The notes below the pieces were generated by a model. That model saw nothing but the letters and a program-made list of their open reading frames with translations, was not told where the DNA came from and made no database searches. Made by a program: the position numbers and the translations under genes. 64,000 nt of DNA from a virus (taxonomy: Duplodnaviria > Caudoviricetes), in the IMG/VR virus record IMGVR_UViG_3300017716_001756, positions 1-64,000 of that record; one strand, 5' to 3'. Shown piece after piece: positions 19,695-54,423 of the stretch. Within the stretch, counting starts at the first letter, position 1; each line of letters starts with the position of its first letter.

Positions 19695-21196
19695 TATGCA
19701 GCCTTTCTAGTAGAGTCTGACCCCGCAGCGGCGTCAGAGCCGGGTGCCTTGGCTTGACGGTCAAGAGAGCTTCCTTGCTTCTTGGCGTCACCAGAGGGGT
19801 CGGCAGTTGTAGAACCATCGACAGCGGCATCAGCCGCAGCAGCTACAGGATTCATGAATCCTGTTCCACTAAGCTCTTGAGCATCAGTGGGCTTGGGGCG
19901 ACCAAACATTTCGATGTGGAAGTAGTCGTCTGTAATAACTCCGTAAGACAGTAGCATCAGCAGACGATTTTGCTTCATAGTTCTTTGCGGTTCAAGTTCC
20001 AGATCGGGTCGAAGCTCAACTTTGTCGAAGCCGAACTCCACGCGGGACTGTGATCCATTAAGACGAAGAGCAAGAGTGAGCATTTCCGACATAAAGTGAG
20101 CGATAGGAGTATTCACCGCATCAGAGTGCATCGAGAAGATACGAGATTCGACCGACGCGGTATTCACGCCTTTATCACCCCGACCAATCACCGTGGCCAT
20201 GGTCTTGAGAGCAGCTTGGTTCTGATCGTTGAACATATCGATCATAGGTTTGATATCGAGGGCCATGCCCGCCGATTTCTCATTCATCATCCCCGGCTCT
20301 ACAGCGTCGGAGTGAACGAAGGCTTGATCCACAGTAAGGGTGGAGATAGTCGTGCTGATTTCTTGGAGGCGAGCTTGCATCCAAGTGTTCATGATGTTCT
20401 CATCAGCCTGAGCATCAGCCGGGGCGTTCTTACGAAGGACTTCTTCCACCACCTTGATATGCATTCGGGGGTAACCCGTCTTACGCATGATGCGGTACAT
20501 ATCGTTGACCACTTGCTGGCGAGCAGCAATGGTATTGATGGCGGAAACGAAGGGCGAGTGAGCGTAAACCCCTGTCGGGTCGCGCTTGAGGAAGGAGACG
20601 AAGAAGGTAGGGATATCGAGACTGATTTCGTCGGAGCTACCAGCGGGGACTTGGACAGGCTTCAGTTGGCCGGGGGTCTTCTCTCGCCATTGAACAGTGG
20701 CCAAATCAATGTGGCGTAGTTCTGCGGGCAGCATGGTCTTGTCGAGAACAAGCTCAGTGCCAATACCACCACGGAGCAAGAGAAGATAACGAAGCTCGTC
20801 GAAGAAGGGGGCCATCGAAGGCTTCAGTTGGAAGCCGAGGCTATAATCGTTCTTCGAGAAGAGACCTTGGAGAAGAATGTTTACTTGGTCATGACCCTGA
20901 GAGTCGATTTTGCCGGATTGGTCGTAGACCACCCACCAAGGTTCCGCTGAAGAGGCCACCGTCAGGTAAGCGTTCACGGATGCTGAAACGTCAGGGTCAT
21001 GTTTGAAAAGATTTTGAAGCAGGGTGCGGGAATCGTCCGACGCACGAGACGCGAAGATATCGATCATATGATCGCGGTAGCCGGGTACGGTCAGTACCTG
21101 ATCGGTATTCTGAGCATTAAACGTCGGCGTTTGGCCGGTCCCCTTGGGGTTAGCACGTTTTTTGTTCAGAATTATCTGGATTGCTGATTGCGCCAT
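19694..21196 (-). CDS. Portal protein
   Basis: 500 aa between terminase and protease genes. Confidence 0.8.
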   Translation of the reverse strand: MAQSAIQIILNKKRANPKGTGQTPTFNAQNTDQVLTVPGYRDHMIDIFASRASDDSRTLLQNLFKHDPDVSASVNAYLTVASSAEPWWVVYDQSGKIDSQGHDQVNILLQGLFSKNDYSLGFQLKPSMAPFFDELRYLLLLRGGIGTELVLDKTMLPAELRHIDLATVQWREKTPGQLKPVQVPAGSSDEISLDIPTFFVSFLKRDPTGVYAHSPFVSAINTIAARQQVVNDMYRIMRKTGYPRMHIKVVEEVLRKNAPADAQADENIMNTWMQARLQEISTTISTLTVDQAFVHSDAVEPGMMNEKSAGMALDIKPMIDMFNDQNQAALKTMATVIGRGDKGVNTASVESRIFSMHSDAVNTPIAHFMSEMLTLALRLNGSQSRVEFGFDKVELRPDLELEPQRTMKQNRLLMLLSYGVITDDYFHIEMFGRPKPTDAQELSGTGFMNPVAAAADAAVDGSTTADPSGDAKKQGSSLDRQAKAPGSDAAAGSDSTRKAA

Positions 21197-22929
21197 ACGC
21201 GATTATCACCTTTGCTAACGCCGAGATTGTCATTGACTTGTCTCTTCAAGTCAATGTTCGAAGTTAGAACCAAAGTTCTGACCTCATCTTTCGAGTTTGC
21301 CATGATGTAGTCCGACAACTTCTTTGAGGCCAGCATGAAGGCTAGGGCATGGAAGTAGTGGTCATTACCAGTCTGTTTCTTCCAGACTGCTTTCTCGCCT
21401 TCTTCCTCGTGACGGACGTTATCCATCATATGCTGGATCAATGTAGATTGTTGGTCACCAAAGTTGTTAAAGGTCATATGGTTTGTACGAATAGCCTTGG
21501 CAACATCGTCCAGCAGCGCGGTTTTGTTTACCTGAGCATAGGTCTCATCATCGACAAGCTCGTTCTCCTTGACCGTAACCTCAGTGAGCCCACGGTATTC
21601 GACCGGGATGATCTTACCTTTGGAGATAGCCCTCACCGCGATTGCGGTGGGAGTGTAGGGGTGGCGGTCAATAGCTCCTGAAACAATTTTGTAGGTAGCC
21701 AGCAATTCTTCAACCCGCTTCTCAAGCTGAGTGGCAGGGACAGTTTCCCAGACGAAGACGTTCCATCCATCGACCTTGTTGTAGGTACCCATGACGATGT
21801 GGCACGTTTGGCCAACGTCGATACCGATGAAAACTTGCTGGTCGCTGTACTTCCAGCCGATAGCGCGGCCCAAGGCGGCACGAACCATATCCTCTGATAG
21901 TGCGATAGAGTCGTCGATGTAGGCTTCGCCAAGCACCGTGTTGTGGAAGCGACGAAGGTTCGTCTTCTTCTTGGCCTCGATCAATTCCCCGACGATGTAG
22001 CGGATATCTAGGCCATCCAGAGAGAAGGGCCGAACCCGATACCCCCTAGATATGTCGGATAGGGAAGGCAGTAAGGGAACCCACTCTCTGGACTCATGGT
22101 CTCCGAGGTTGAGGGGTTCTCTGCATCGCTCACAGACAACGTGGGAGTTTCGTAGGTCGAGTTCTCCCACGTTGTCGATATTGATCTGGTCCACCAAGGA
22201 GGAATGCTGGTCTCCGATACCGGGAATATCGCAGAAATCTCGGGTGAAAGTTGGAATTTGCTGATGGTTGCAGTGAGAGCACTTAATGAAGAATTCATGT
22301 TGATCTGACTCCGTGAAGTCCTTGTTGATTCCCGCTTTGGGGTATGTGGGGGTAGAGAACTTCTGGTTAATCTTGTAGCGAGAGCCCTGAAGACGCGACC
22401 GGAACAGGTTCAGCATTTCAGGGTCGTCCATCAGGTCGATTTCGTCGTTCATGACCATATCGGCGGGGATAGAGGTAGCGTCACCTTCTTTCGAGCCGGT
22501 GAGGTAGAGGAAGCTCTGACCGAACTGCATCAGGCCCTTGGCGCGGACAGCGTCTTCGTCAAACTCAGACATAAACACAGCGTCGTTCTCGACGATAGGC
22601 TTGATACGGGTCTGAGAGACCCGGTCCCTCATCACATCGTTAGGCATCGTGTAGATTACGCTGACGCCGTCGAGACGACGCACCCATGCGAGGGCTTTAC
22701 GGACCTGAATCTCTGTCAGGCCCACCTGAGAGGGCTTGACCACGCTCATGTTCTGGTGAAAGTCGTCTGCGATCTGGCGCTGGAACTCATAACCCTTGAT
22801 GGAGAAGGGGCGCTTACGAAGCGTCGTATTATGTTCCAGCCACTCCGTCGTTCCCATGGTCTCCGAATCGATGGAGTAACGGTGGCGAAGACGGTTGAGG
22901 AATTTATCCATCAGGTCTTGTTCGTTCAT
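21172..22929 (-). CDS. terL: Terminase large subunit (GpA-like)
   Basis: VVKPSQVGLTE Walker A variant, MNDEID Walker B, STPT motif, CxxC zinc motifs, nuclease IGIDVG and NDHYFHA. Confidence 0.93.
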   Translation of the reverse strand: MNEQDLMDKFLNRLRHRYSIDSETMGTTEWLEHNTTLRKRPFSIKGYEFQRQIADDFHQNMSVVKPSQVGLTEIQVRKALAWVRRLDGVSVIYTMPNDVMRDRVSQTRIKPIVENDAVFMSEFDEDAVRAKGLMQFGQSFLYLTGSKEGDATSIPADMVMNDEIDLMDDPEMLNLFRSRLQGSRYKINQKFSTPTYPKAGINKDFTESDQHEFFIKCSHCNHQQIPTFTRDFCDIPGIGDQHSSLVDQINIDNVGELDLRNSHVVCERCREPLNLGDHESREWVPLLPSLSDISRGYRVRPFSLDGLDIRYIVGELIEAKKKTNLRRFHNTVLGEAYIDDSIALSEDMVRAALGRAIGWKYSDQQVFIGIDVGQTCHIVMGTYNKVDGWNVFVWETVPATQLEKRVEELLATYKIVSGAIDRHPYTPTAIAVRAISKGKIIPVEYRGLTEVTVKENELVDDETYAQVNKTALLDDVAKAIRTNHMTFNNFGDQQSTLIQHMMDNVRHEEEGEKAVWKKQTGNDHYFHALAFMLASKKLSDYIMANSKDEVRTLVLTSNIDLKRQVNDNLGVSKGDNRVWRNQQSR

Positions 22930-22936
22930 TCAAAGA

Positions 22937-23359
22937 TTATTGCACTAAAAACAACGGATGGAAATAGGGCATTGTTTGTTTGGAGATATCGAAGTTGTTG
23001 GATTTCTCTCTGTTCTCTTCTTCTGTGAGAATCTGAAGGTTGGCGGGAACATGAAGGCCGCAAACTAGAGGGTGGTTAACCGGTACGATATGATCGACCT
23101 GATACTGCACACCCTCTAGCAGGGTTTTAAGGGCCGCATCAATGTAAATCTCACGAACGTCCTTGGCAAAGTGTTTTGCAACAGCCGTTCCGGTGCCTTT
23201 TGCACGGCGCATTGCGTCTCTCGCCGCACGGTATCCGGGGTGACGGCGGTTGATTTGGGAGGATCGGGCGCAGAAAACACAGTGCTTGTTGCTGACGTAC
23301 CTTTCGGTATTTTCACAACGTTTACAAGGCTTTCCGTGGTATTTTTCGGCTGGCTTCAT
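22937..23359 (-). CDS. HNH homing endonuclease
   Basis: CKRC/CVFC zinc motifs and [34 protein letters not shown]. Confidence 0.9.
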
Positions 23360-50033: not shown

Positions 50034-50744
50034 TTGAGGCCAATGAACAAGCAACGAACGGATCACTACGGAGTGCATCTAGCCTCTAATGGCCTTTGGT
50101 TTCTTATCCAGAATGACGAGCAAAATGAACGTGGACTTCTCAATGTCAAAAGTAATATCGCAGTTAAAACACATCGTAACCGACCAGTCTCTCACTCAAT
50201 CCGGTTGGGTTCTGGCGAACTCGGTGACGATCTTTCTGCTGCAACTCTCGAATGGCTTTCTAGGGACAAGCTAGGAAGCCTTCTGCTCCCTGATCCTCGG
50301 AACGCGGGTAGGGTGGTCTTCGTAGAAGAAGACCCTAAACTTCACAATCAAATCTATCTTGTAGGCTCGCTGACTTCATCGATTCGTGCGCCAGTACGAC
50401 TGGCGTGGACCGTGACCTTGGGGGAGGCCAAGGCAGAATTTCGGCTCACAAATGTTCAACCCTTCATCATCACCGGTGTCACTCCTAAATGGATGGCGCA
50501 ACATGGTTCCGAAATCGCCGCCCTATTCAGGGCGGGTACTAGACCTCTTATCCTTGTTGGCTCTAGCGACGTTGTTATACCTCGCGAAGTCCAAGAAAGA
50601 TTGAAGCCCGGTGCCTTCCGTCGCCTAGGAAAACACACCCCTCAACAGCTTGAGCAAATGGGTTCAAGCTTTCTTCAGAAATGGTTTACCGATGCAAGAA
50701 AAAATAACGATCAGTGGCGAGCAGTATTCGTACCAAGAATTTGA
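50034..50744 (+). CDS. Hypothetical protein
   Basis: 236-aa ORF coupled to its neighbours. Confidence 0.6.
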   Translation: MRPMNKQRTDHYGVHLASNGLWFLIQNDEQNERGLLNVKSNIAVKTHRNRPVSHSIRLGSGELGDDLSAATLEWLSRDKLGSLLLPDPRNAGRVVFVEEDPKLHNQIYLVGSLTSSIRAPVRLAWTVTLGEAKAEFRLTNVQPFIITGVTPKWMAQHGSEIAALFRAGTRPLILVGSSDVVIPREVQERLKPGAFRRLGKHTPQQLEQMGSSFLQKWFTDARKNNDQWRAVFVPRI

Positions 50745-51144
50745 TTACATTCAGGAAGATACCACGGTATTGGCTCAGATTCTGAGAACACAAGCCAATC
50801 TCCTTGATAGAGGGGTCTCTGATGGACTCACCTTCAGCGCCGATGCCCCGGTTAACGTTCTCTATCATAAAGACCTAGTTGTAGGTTTCATGATTTATGA
50901 AGACACTGGCTCCATCGAACGCACGATCACTCTTGCGTGGGTCCATCCCGCACATCGACAGAAGGGTCTCCATAGTTTTCTGTTTAGGAAACTGAAGGAT
51001 CAGGCAACCGAACACGGATTCTTCCGAATCCTCCGAGGGCATCATAAGGAAAATTATGCGTCTGCTCTTGCACAAATGAGTCAGGGTTCCCAGATTTACG
51101 CCACGAACGGTGATTACGTTTACACGAGGAACGATCTGCGATGA
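50692..51144 (+). CDS. GNAT acetyltransferase
   Basis: VVGFMIY...AWVHPAHRQKGLHSFLF...ENYAS. Confidence 0.8.
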   Translation: MQEKITISGEQYSYQEFDYIQEDTTVLAQILRTQANLLDRGVSDGLTFSADAPVNVLYHKDLVVGFMIYEDTGSIERTITLAWVHPAHRQKGLHSFLFRKLKDQATEHGFFRILRGHHKENYASALAQMSQGSQIYATNGDYVYTRNDLR

Positions 51145-51153
51145 CCCCGATTT

Positions 51154-51369
51154 TTGTATTCAGCTCAAATCTCTCTGGTAACTTCTATCTATGTGCATAG
51201 ACCCGAGGGACATGAGGTAGATCATGAGATACCATTAAATCATCCTTTAGTATGTGGGCTACATTGTGTAGCCAATCTTCAGTATCTTATTGCTGAAGTT
51301 AACAGAGAAAAATCAAATAGGTTTAACCCCAATGACTTCAGTTACCCTTCGCGACTATCAACAGCTTGA
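51154..51369 (+). pseudogene. Truncated HNH endonuclease remnant overlapping the helicase start
   Basis: Only the C-terminal HNH core remains ([27 protein letters not shown]...NREKSNRF), with no credible start codon. Nearly matches the HNH at 22937-23359. Confidence 0.75.
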
Positions 51370-52816
51370 TCTAGCCTACATGATTCATAAGGGTCGAGGT
51401 CTCTTCATGCACGATCCGGGAGTTGGATAGCCCGAAAGGGCACATGGAAAAACCCCCCCCGCCTGTATCTTCATCTATTATGTCTGGGCCAAGCATAGGG
51501 CTAAGACACAGTGGGCAATGCCTACACATTTGATGAAGAAGAACAAGGCCGAACTACTGCGATGGAGTAATTTCAGGGATGAAGAGATTGTCATTGTGGA
51601 CGGTACCGCAAAGCAGCGAGACGCTCTGCGTAACAATAGTGTTGCCAAGGTATTCATTACTTCTTTCCCCGAACTTACCCGCAAGGATAAGCAGAAGGTT
51701 CCTGCTTGGCAAAAGTTCCCCGGCACCGATCTGATAGTTATCGACGAATTCCAGAAGTATTTCTCGAATCACGATAGCCCCTCTACTCAAGAGCTTTACC
51801 GATGCATGAAGAGCAAGAAATTCTTCCTCGGCATGAGCGGTACCGTGATGAAGGGAAGACTGGACAGCGCCTACCCGATGATTCAAATCATCGCCCCACA
51901 ATACTACGGGAACTATTGGGACTTCTTGATGCAACACGCTATCAAGGATTTCTGGGGTAAGGTTATTGGATGGAGAAACCATGAGAAGCTTAAACAAGTC
52001 CTCTATAGGATCGGTCGTCGTACATCTTTTGAAGATGTTTTTGGCAAGAGAGATATCGTTTTCTTTATTGAGGAAATTGATATGGGACTCGGTCAGAAAA
52101 AACTATACGACCAATTCAAATCCATGGGGATGGTTGAGCTTGAGAAAGTCGTCCTCGAAGGGTCGAACGAAGGCGTAAACCTTCTAAGACTCCGACAGAT
52201 TCTGGCACACCCCGAACGAATCTCTGTCCCGATGGAGAGAGATAAGGACGGAAAGATTACTAGGTTTGAAGTCGTCGATGCCTCAGGGAGCGTTGACACG
52301 GAACGTGACGAACGTATCAAGCTTCATATCCAAGACCACCTCGATACCAAGGAGCCACTTGTTATCGTATCGACCTTGATTCCCGAGCAAGAGCGTCTAT
52401 ATAAGCTCGCAACCAGCATGGGGATGAAGACGGCCCTCATCAATTCCAACACGCCTAACAGCACCCGATGGAAGATTGACGAGGACTTTCAGGCTGGAAG
52501 ACTTCAGTGCGTGGTAGGTTCGCCCACCACTATGGGCACAGGCTTCAATTGGTCGCACATCAACCATATCCTTTTTGCAGGATTGGATTTTGCGACTGAT
52601 GATTTCATTCAGATGCTGATGCGAGCCTTCCGGGGCAAGCGGAATCAGCCTCTGAAGGCCACACTGATTCAATACAAGAATTCTGTGGAGCAGCACTTGG
52701 ATAAGGTACACGACGAGAAGAGCCGACAGTCGAGCATTGTCGATCCTACTTATCTCACACTGAACCTGAGCGGGCATCATAGAACACCTGAAAATGGGGT
52801 CTTCGTGAGCGGTTGA
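51332..52816 (+). CDS. SF2 (SNF2-like) DNA helicase, interrupted in motif I by an in-frame UAG-containing 21-nt insert
   Basis: ATG 51332 gives MTSVTLRDYQQ (Q motif)...HDPGVG, then TAG, then in the same frame GKTPP...IVIDEFQKY...MSGT...GTGFN...QMLMRAFRG. Confidence 0.9.
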
Positions 52817-53979: not shown

Positions 53980-54423
53980 TCAAACGTTAAATGAGTTACC
54001 CTTTTCAACGTTGGCTTTAGCAGTTAGGTACTGGAAGTTCTGAACTGTGTGAAGTCCACAAACGTTCTTCCCCTTGAGAGGAATCACATGATCAACATGG
54101 TGTCCTTCAGGACAGGCTTCATAGAAAGCTTTGATCGCTTCTTGATCTGCCCATTTAGGTGTTTGATTTTTGGTTCTTAGACGACGAGCGTTAGTATGGT
54201 AGTTGACGAGACCCTTGTTGGCTTTTTTCCATTTAGGTCCGTAAGCTTTCATATAATCAGCATGATATCCCTTGTTGGCCCTGAAGAATTTTAATGTCCG
54301 TTCCTTATTACACACGACGCAATCGTTGTTGCTGACGTAGCGACCAGAATCGTGTCTGTACTTACAGACTTTTCCTGACGTATAAATGTTTGAGCCAGCG
54401 GCTATTGCTTCTGTCTTGGTCAT
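53980..54423 (-). CDS. HNH homing endonuclease (antisense insertion)
   Basis: GKVCKYRHDSGRYVSNNDCVVC; TPKWAD; HHVDHVIPLKGKNVCGLHTVQNFQYLTAKANVEKGN. Confidence 0.9.
   Translation of the reverse strand: MTKTEAIAAGSNIYTSGKVCKYRHDSGRYVSNNDCVVCNKERTLKFFRANKGYHADYMKAYGPKWKKANKGLVNYHTNARRLRTKNQTPKWADQEAIKAFYEACPEGHHVDHVIPLKGKNVCGLHTVQNFQYLTAKANVEKGNSFNV

Follow-up and report, generated by a model that had tools for sequence, protein, structure and literature searches.

A shrunken HNH endonuclease gene directly before an interrupted helicase Walker A motif in a JWF-like phage: a possible endonuclease-plus-bypass cassette

The locus described here belongs to IMG/VR record IMGVR_UViG_3300017716_001756, a phage record of 79,046 nucleotides (nt), of which positions 1-64,000 were analysed and are called the window. 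Directly upstream of a gene for an SNF2-type helicase lies a reading frame for an HNH endonuclease core, preceded by a 19-codon stub, and the helicase gene is itself interrupted in its Walker A codons by 21 nt that open with a stop codon (Table 1). The helicase ATG at 51332 falls within the HNH frame, so that the first 38 nt of the gene are shared, and 58 nt separate the HNH stop from the TAG of the insert at 51428. On the other side, the TGA stop of a GNAT acetyltransferase gene overlaps the ATG of the stub, as ATGA. An earlier sequence-only reading had proposed that a decayed HNH gene and the insert make up a mobile cassette of endonuclease plus translational bypass, of the kind found in phage T4.

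Table 1. Features of the HNH-helicase locus and the two HNH paralogs in the window
Feature	Coordinates	Strand	Remarks
Conserved 236-residue gene	50034-50744		31% identical to JWF gp65
GNAT acetyltransferase gene, upstream neighbour	50650-51144	+	Pfam PF00583 (E 7e-05); PHROG acetyltransferase families
19-codon stub (MTPIFVFSSNLSGNFYLCA, then stop)	51141-51200	+	ATG 51141 to TAG 51198-51200; out of frame with the HNH core
HNH catalytic core frame, 71 codons	51154-51369	+	TTG 51154 to TGA 51367-51369; family homology about 51169-51350
Helicase codons 1-32 (MTSVTLRDYQ...MHDPGVG)	51332-51427	+	Ends in putative take-off codon GGA 51425-51427
21-nt in-frame insert	51428-51448	+	TAG, hairpin GCCC-GAAA-GGGC (51430-51441), ACAT, second GGA 51446-51448
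Remainder of SNF2-type helicase (KTPPACIFIYYVW... to stop)	51449-52816	+	Pfam SNF2-rel_dom and Helicase_C; PHROG 62 (E 1e-47)
Intact HNH paralog, 140 residues	22937-23359	-	Directly upstream of large terminase gene
Intact free-standing HNH paralog, 147 residues	53980-54423	-	Among replication genes, between a 103-residue gene and a 5'-3' exonuclease

The frame at 51154-51369 matched PHROG 26577 (E 2.6e-07) and PHROG 1035, endonuclease VII/HNH (E 7e-06). The HNH call thus goes beyond chance, and both intact paralogs match the same two families. The Pfam HNH models gave no match to the remnant at E 0.1, and a profile search of PDB sequences gave none either. The remnant and its two paralogs are the only HNH copies in the genome. 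Against the 22937-23359 paralog the remnant showed 59% identity over 46 residues (tblastn, 2e-17) and 69% nucleotide identity over 106 nt. When the whole remnant was compared, the 53980-54423 paralog was the closer of the two (53% versus 43%). In a 22-sequence alignment, the remnant keeps every invariant residue of the family (D23, H24, P27, G35, H37, N41, Q43, N50, K53 and N55); the F.HE motif that precedes the core is lost in the window copy.

An AlphaFold2 model of the 71-residue open reading frame (ORF) has a helix-strand-strand-helix core (H3-14, E20-24, E42-46, H47-53) with a predicted local distance difference test score (pLDDT) of 77. The top Foldseek rows for this model were HNH nucleases (Cap5, Gme HNH 4h9d and the Cas9 HNH domain), none reaching E 0.001. 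Full-length members of the family have 150-200 residues and comprise an N-terminal zinc-ribbon (YFTGxxCKxGH...CxxC), a lysine-rich, basic linker and the core at the C-terminus. Zinc-ribbon and linker are present in both paralogs, in P0065-P0075, in P0100 and in P0101, and are absent from the window copy and from P0063, a short database relative. Other natural members of 70-91 residues are P0109, P0171, P0173, P0175 and P0219. These comparisons confirmed 51154-51369 as a complete HNH catalytic core by sequence, and the description 'N-terminally truncated' is correct because the core alone is left. A profile search of IMG/VR with P0063 and the remnant found one full-length member, located after a lysis gene and not near a helicase. 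An extension of the HNH homology into the C-terminus of the GNAT protein was rejected, as that stretch aligns weakly and fits the GNAT fold.

P0063, an ORF of 81 residues (MNNDEIFVFGRELRQRTFKHETSAITEFYFHRPEGHEVDH...), was the best database match of the remnant (E 2.6e-24, 68% identity). It begins MNNDEIFVFG and continues straight into the HNH core. Its N-terminus, M..IFVFG, matches the MTPIFVFS of the window stub, and an unusual tail is common to both loci (NRFNPDDFSY in P0063, NRFNPNDFSY in the window). The distance from IFVF to HRPEGH is 75 nt in P0063 and 46 nt in the window; about 29 nt, the RELRQRTFKHE segment, have therefore been lost in the window, shifting the frame. Since the intact P0063 ORF joins the same N-terminus to the same core, the stub and the core are one mini-HNH gene, disrupted in the window by this deletion. 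The homology of P0063 to the full-length proteins starts at residue 11 (P0100 reads ...RKLKERTFKHE..RPEG..YLTIESNRIKSN), which points to a history from a full-length HNH to an 81-residue mini-HNH with a new N-terminus, and from there to the frameshifted window copy.

Several details of the sequence-only reading can be settled at this point. The truncated core at 51154-51369, its 38-nt overlap with the helicase start and the 19-codon stub at 51141-51200 were all found as described, and the insert is as near to the HNH stop as was said, 58 nt rather than about 55 nt away. The likeness to the 22937-23359 copy was likewise real, with the provisos that this paralog lies on the minus strand and is not the closest overall. 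The stub, however, had been taken for the start of a destroyed gene of the phage 'IFVFGSN' family, and this idea gave way: P0063 makes it the N-terminus of the same mini-HNH. A 20-residue window on the stub gave no Pfam or PHROG match at E 10, the query being very short, and no other IFVFGSN-type motif occurs in the window or in the fetched loci. The 'IFVFGSN' family may have been a distant source of the new N-terminus, 19 residues being too short for a firm negative.

The core appears well kept for its apparent age. Between the window and L002, a related metagenome contig, the helicases are about 76-77% identical, with nonsynonymous divergence (dN) of 0.19 and synonymous divergence (dS) of 2.2, i.e. 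saturated synonymous sites. The helicases of the window and of the phage that carries helicase P0003 are also 77% identical, yet the HNH cores are 68% identical with the invariant residues kept. Because neutral drift over such a time would leave the sequence unrecognisable, the mini-HNH would either have been under selection until recently or have moved recently between lineages. The word 'decayed' is thus correct only in part and too strong, given a core that is 68% identical to P0063 despite saturated dS.

In the helicase gene, the GGA of codon 32 is followed by TAG CCC GAA AGG GCA CAT GGA and then by AAA ACC. Relatives read HDPGVGKTPPAC(I/L)F uninterrupted, and the DNA of L002 runs GGT GTC GGT AAG ACA, which makes the 21 nt an insert, placed between the Walker A residues G and K. 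The alignment of the N-terminal 60 residues of ten relatives spans it without a change of frame, giving one match with a gap of 6-7 residues. The limits of the insert are ambiguous owing to a flanking TGGA repeat. Its hairpin has a calculated free energy (dG) of -8.2 kcal/mol (z -2.7) and a GNRA loop, and the insert is found once in the window. Beyond it, the helicase (71-80% identical to P0002-P0009) is intact with all invariant family residues kept, and it is the best conserved gene of the neighbourhood, with a dN/dS of about 0.09 against L002.

Two candidates considered as ALTERNATIVES for the insert were judged unlikely. Read-through or recoding of the TAG would add seven residues and destroy the GxGKT loop; moreover, the window has no tRNA gene and TAG serves in it as an ordinary stop. 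A dead gene is hard to reconcile with the intact and well conserved helicase downstream. A helicase split by the HNH gene was rejected as no second N-terminal helicase fragment lies upstream; a search of the protein collection for such fragments returned the window's own 32-residue call and nothing else. The 17-mer GGATAGCCCGAAAGGGC gave 9 matches in IMG/VR, about the chance level, and none inside a helicase. Four related IMG/VR contigs (L008 768, L009 11046, L011 4725 and L012 7497) share the take-off and hairpin 17-mer of the window, reading ...ETVGTG and then GGA TAG CCCGAAAGGGC ATAG. This resembles an ordinary gene end with a hairpin, outside any helicase, and is probably a chance likeness.

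Among relatives, interruption was judged from short protein calls that begin after Walker A. The P0003 call (448 residues) has as its first residue the Met within ...CLFMYYVW, nine residues past GKT, as a gene caller would place it when a stop closes the frame at Walker A. Each of P0063 and P0003 comes from just one Logan contig, 17,849 nt long in both cases. Shifted by one base, the P0063 tail ...NPDDFSYS translates to MTSVT, with which the window helicase begins, so the two genes very probably adjoin one another as they do in the window. P0076, from the same 90% cluster as P0003, is uninterrupted (495 residues) and has a different start (MPKESSTTTTPLSLRDYQ; MPKESS...); to judge from this N-terminus, the HNH tail is lacking there too. 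L002 has neither HNH nor insert; there, a metallophosphoesterase gene runs into the helicase start. The only other HNH and helicase calls on contigs of equal size were P0070 and P0012 (55,800 nt), and the P0012 helicase is uninterrupted.

With the window included, 13 short helicase calls were collected: eleven of 421-431 residues, P0003, and the window's own P0001 of 427 residues. The eleven begin at MPTHL, MKKNK or MIWAM, and their 90% siblings are full length (476-495 residues). On a maximum-likelihood tree, short helicases occur at no fewer than four separate places among full ones. The short P0094 differs from the full-length P0099 and P0097 at 5 and 7 of 426 residues, respectively, all of them within the first 200. 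Short calls recur in at least 12 independently assembled relatives (Logan, ENA and JGI). As judged from these calls, closely related phages are polymorphic for the presence or absence of the interruption.

The 5' end of the helicase gene is also variable in other respects. Helicases that are more than 98% identical over most of their length (P0007, P0097, P0099 and P0094) are mosaic in their first 70 or so residues; their N-termini differ, as do stretches such as GVGKTPPSC and GTGKTIPAC. Such a pattern points to recombination or co-conversion as a frequent event at the helicase 5' end. The short P0084 and the full-length P0081 show 1 difference in the first 280 or so aligned residues and 40 in the C-terminal third. 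By this comparison the helicase has recombined, and 5' parts that are identical in other respects differ in the interruption.

The reading we prefer, with a probability of about 0.45, is that 51141-51369 represents a homing-endonuclease locus in reduced form, and that the disruption of its target site has survived as a gap over which ribosomes hop. Its ancestor would be a full-length phage HNH of PHROG 1035/26577 with zinc-ribbon, basic linker and C-terminal core. An old deletion would have taken the zinc-ribbon and the linker, giving the 81-residue ORF that is still intact in a related phage, and the second deletion, of about 29 nt and close to the 5' end, would have shifted the first 8-19 codons relative to the frame of the core. 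Sitting in a variable slot before the SNF2 helicase, the gene would represent the remains of a free-standing homing-endonuclease locus. The homing target is predicted to be the highly conserved Walker A DNA of the adjoining helicase, and the 21-nt insert (GGA-TAG-hairpin-GGA) to be a target-site disruption that shields the genomes carrying it. The insert would be tolerated as ribosomes hop from GGA to GGA, rebuilding HDPGVG|KTPP.

The closest known parallel is the T4 MobA element, in which the HNH homing endonuclease gene mobA is combined with the 50-nt bypass of gene 60 (Bonocora et al. 2011, as cited by Manning and Atkins, bioRxiv 10.1101/2022.08.31.505936). In the MobA case, the element is what distinguishes pairs of 96-99% identity (Manning and Atkins, bioRxiv 10.1101/2022.08.31.505936), a pattern like that of the helicase interruption described above. 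In both systems the nuclease ORF is directly upstream, and its 3' end overlaps the start of the target gene out of frame, by 8-32 nt in MobA elements, 20 nt in T4 (60.1/gene 60) and 38 nt in the window. The start of the gap falls within a catalytic motif of high conservation, after 46 codons in T4, behind ...DADHDG in the Toprim DxD...G motif, and after 32 codons here, behind ...MHDPGVG in Walker A. The T4 gap reads GGA UAG CCUUCGGGCUAUC... and the present one GGA UAG CCCGAAAGGGCAC, the first 8 nt (GGAUAGCC) being identical. The take-off GGA, the immediate UAG, a tetraloop hairpin in the same place (GAAA here) and the matched GGA landing codon are common to both. The T4 reference genome also keeps a defective mobA as two fragments, mobA and 60.1, and the T4 laboratory strain, KARL1 and Aes012 have, as here, a defective nuclease with the gap kept.

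Nevertheless, the two systems differ in their parts. The HNH families are unrelated and differ in domain order, with the core at the C-terminus here, and BLASTP of the remnant against T4 gp60.1 gave no alignment at E 100. The target is an SNF2 helicase instead of Topo2L, and the host gene is unsplit and has no CTE/NTE tails such as those of MobA elements. The gap is in frame and 21 nt long as opposed to 50 nt, no element-encoded nascent-peptide signal is evident, and the carrier is a JWF-like siphovirus and not a myovirus. From this comparison the locus works like a MobA cassette, if at all, but is not a member of the MobA element family.

Another useful comparison is Salmonella phage renfri (MT074445.1, L015 2171-4331), whose renfri_36 (166 residues) belongs to the same PHROG 1035/26577 family and has the same C-terminal core motif (EVDHxIPL..VCGLH..NLQYL..N..K.N). 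Like the remnant, renfri_36 is directly upstream of, and overlaps, a superfamily 2 (SF2) helicase gene, by 11 nt compared with 38 nt here. The DEAD-box helicase of renfri has its Walker A, MPTGSGKS, about 32 codons in and uninterrupted. Free-standing HNH proteins of PHROG 1035/26577 are annotated as 'endonuclease VII' or 'HNH homing endonuclease' and, in contrast to the remnant, are full length (about 150-200 residues with zinc-ribbon). Judged from the position of renfri_36 directly upstream of a helicase and from the absence of the 53980-54423 paralog from L002, the family appears to behave as free-standing endonucleases. Small terminase-associated HNH proteins of the HK97 gp74 type resemble the remnant in their small size, and one paralog of this genome, 22937-23359, adjoins the large terminase gene; the remnant itself is in the replication module, far from the packaging genes.

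The cassette proposed by the sequence-only reading is partly supported, by its T4-like geometry, by the probable pair on the 17,849-nt contig, by the polymorphism of the interruption and by L002, which has neither part, while a functional link between HNH and insert, as in the T4 nuclease-plus-hop cassette, is unproven.

A number of observations weigh against a homing origin of the insert. The gap of just 58 nt between HNH and insert means that any recombination would co-inherit them, so that their co-occurrence reflects linkage and not function. HNH adjacency does not require the insert, to judge from renfri, because its helicase Walker A is uninterrupted. Both known mini copies are without the zinc-ribbon, the presumed DNA-binding part, and no full-length HNH was found beside any interrupted helicase. 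Contigs of the same sizes as those of the other 12 interrupted helicases yielded no P0063-like ORF, a negative of little weight given that short ORFs often go uncalled, as did the window's own HNH remnant. The conserved core may reflect a role of the mini-HNH that is unrelated to homing. Finally, both the hop and the nuclease specificity are putative and unproven.

The main rival reading is one of linkage only: the HNH gene would have landed in a slot that is a hot spot for accessory and selfish genes and decayed there, and the insert would have arisen independently, for example as the scar of another element or endonuclease, and travelled with it over 58 nt. This explanation is possible, if somewhat doubtful. 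The contents of the slot do vary between phages (the GNAT gene here, a metallophosphoesterase gene in L002, none at all in Achromobacter phage JWF), the genome is rich in HNH genes, having three of them, and both renfri and the contigs assigned to the other interrupted relatives, where no HNH was detected, agree with it. Against it stand the close geometric match to T4 mobA and gene 60 and the recurrence of the same HNH/interruption pair in the 17,849-nt contig. By a rough estimate, the odds that one of three HNH copies in 79 kb would lie within about 500 nt of a given site by chance are around 4%.

It is rather unlikely that the mini-HNH is a selected small nuclease with its own role, either nicking in replication, recombination or packaging or acting as a partner of the helicase, and translated from TTG 51154 or by ribosomes that re-initiate past the GNAT gene or the stub. 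The window copy and P0063 have both retained all invariant residues despite 32% differing sites, between phages so far apart that synonymous sites are saturated; members of similar size occur naturally, and the 71-residue ORF is modelled as a complete core. Against this, no Shine-Dalgarno-like sequence was read before TTG 51154 or GTG 51193, the P0063-type N-terminus is frameshifted in the window, and the F.HE motif is lost.

That there is nothing to protect, the interrupted helicase being dead or dispensable or the insert an assembly artefact beside one more decaying HNH gene, is improbable: the window is a metagenome-assembled record and the hop only putative, but the helicase beyond the insert is intact with its invariant residues and a low dN/dS, short calls recur in independently assembled relatives, and the insert is in frame with matched GGA codons and a stable GNRA hairpin.

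If the shrunken homing locus is accepted, a wider and more tentative proposal can be made, which we regard as less probable than the reading of the single locus. JWF-like siphoviruses would carry a second, independently evolved endonuclease-plus-bypass cassette, in which the Walker A codons of an SNF2 helicase are the homing target of a zinc-ribbon-family HNH, which leaves a hopped 21-nt GGA-UAG-hairpin-GGA gap behind. This gap would have persisted and spread among near-identical phages after the nuclease shrank to a conserved mini-HNH. A second independent origin, suggested already by the sequence-only reading, is plausible, since the HNH family and the target gene differ and there is no similarity to T4 gp60.1; it depends on the putative hop. 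Bypassing like that of gene 60 is known only from a single mobile element, in a single gene of T4-like myoviruses. A 2022 survey found the bypass cassette exclusively in Topo2L and called it unique (Manning and Atkins, bioRxiv 10.1101/2022.08.31.505936), and a full-text literature search found neither bypass reported for the Walker A of any helicase nor, beyond Topo2L, a gap linked to an HNH gene. The terminase bypass of phiHau3 is a separate case, unrelated to HNH genes.

Should the proposal hold, bypassing of the gene 60 type would be a widely applicable answer to the problem of homing into essential catalytic motifs and not a single topoisomerase oddity. A different nuclease family, a different essential gene and a shorter gap would demonstrate convergent evolution of the same strategy, in which the target is disrupted and the ribosome skips the disruption. 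The locus would also supply a natural variant for studying what a hop requires, with 21 nt, a GNRA hairpin and no dedicated nascent peptide. For annotation, helicases of at least 13 related phages have been called 50-60 residues short, and the stub and the core would otherwise be mistaken for two unrelated fragments.

Searches for related loci recovered little. By blastn, the locus matched nothing in the phage collection, and searches with the helicase protein or alignment found no related locus in the viral or genome contig collections. A metagenome contig search with the helicase recovered L002 and a 3' fragment, L003, only. The closest cultured relatives of the source phage are Achromobacter phages JWF and 2-1, which are distant, with a helicase identity of only 40%. 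In phage 2-1 (OQ974181.1, L004 2377-3826) the helicase is annotated as two overlapping coding sequences. This split was rejected as a parallel case, being a plain 2-nt frameshift relative to JWF, after Walker A and about 48 codons in; the shift reflects either an error in sequencing or a genuine break.

The slot upstream of the helicase start was compared at 50650-51144 of the window, 27-248 of L002 and 2200-2908 of L001, and in the window and L002 the upstream ORF enters the helicase 5' end in the same relative frame. The record's own call of the GNAT gene begins at ATG 50692 and corresponds to P0064 (150 residues). At the place in L002 that matches the 53980-54423 paralog (2380-2955) there is no HNH gene, and this paralog looks like a separate free-standing insertion. 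The large terminase gene (21172-22929) and the portal gene follow immediately downstream of the 22937-23359 paralog; a spot beside the large terminase is the usual location of packaging-associated HNH proteins.

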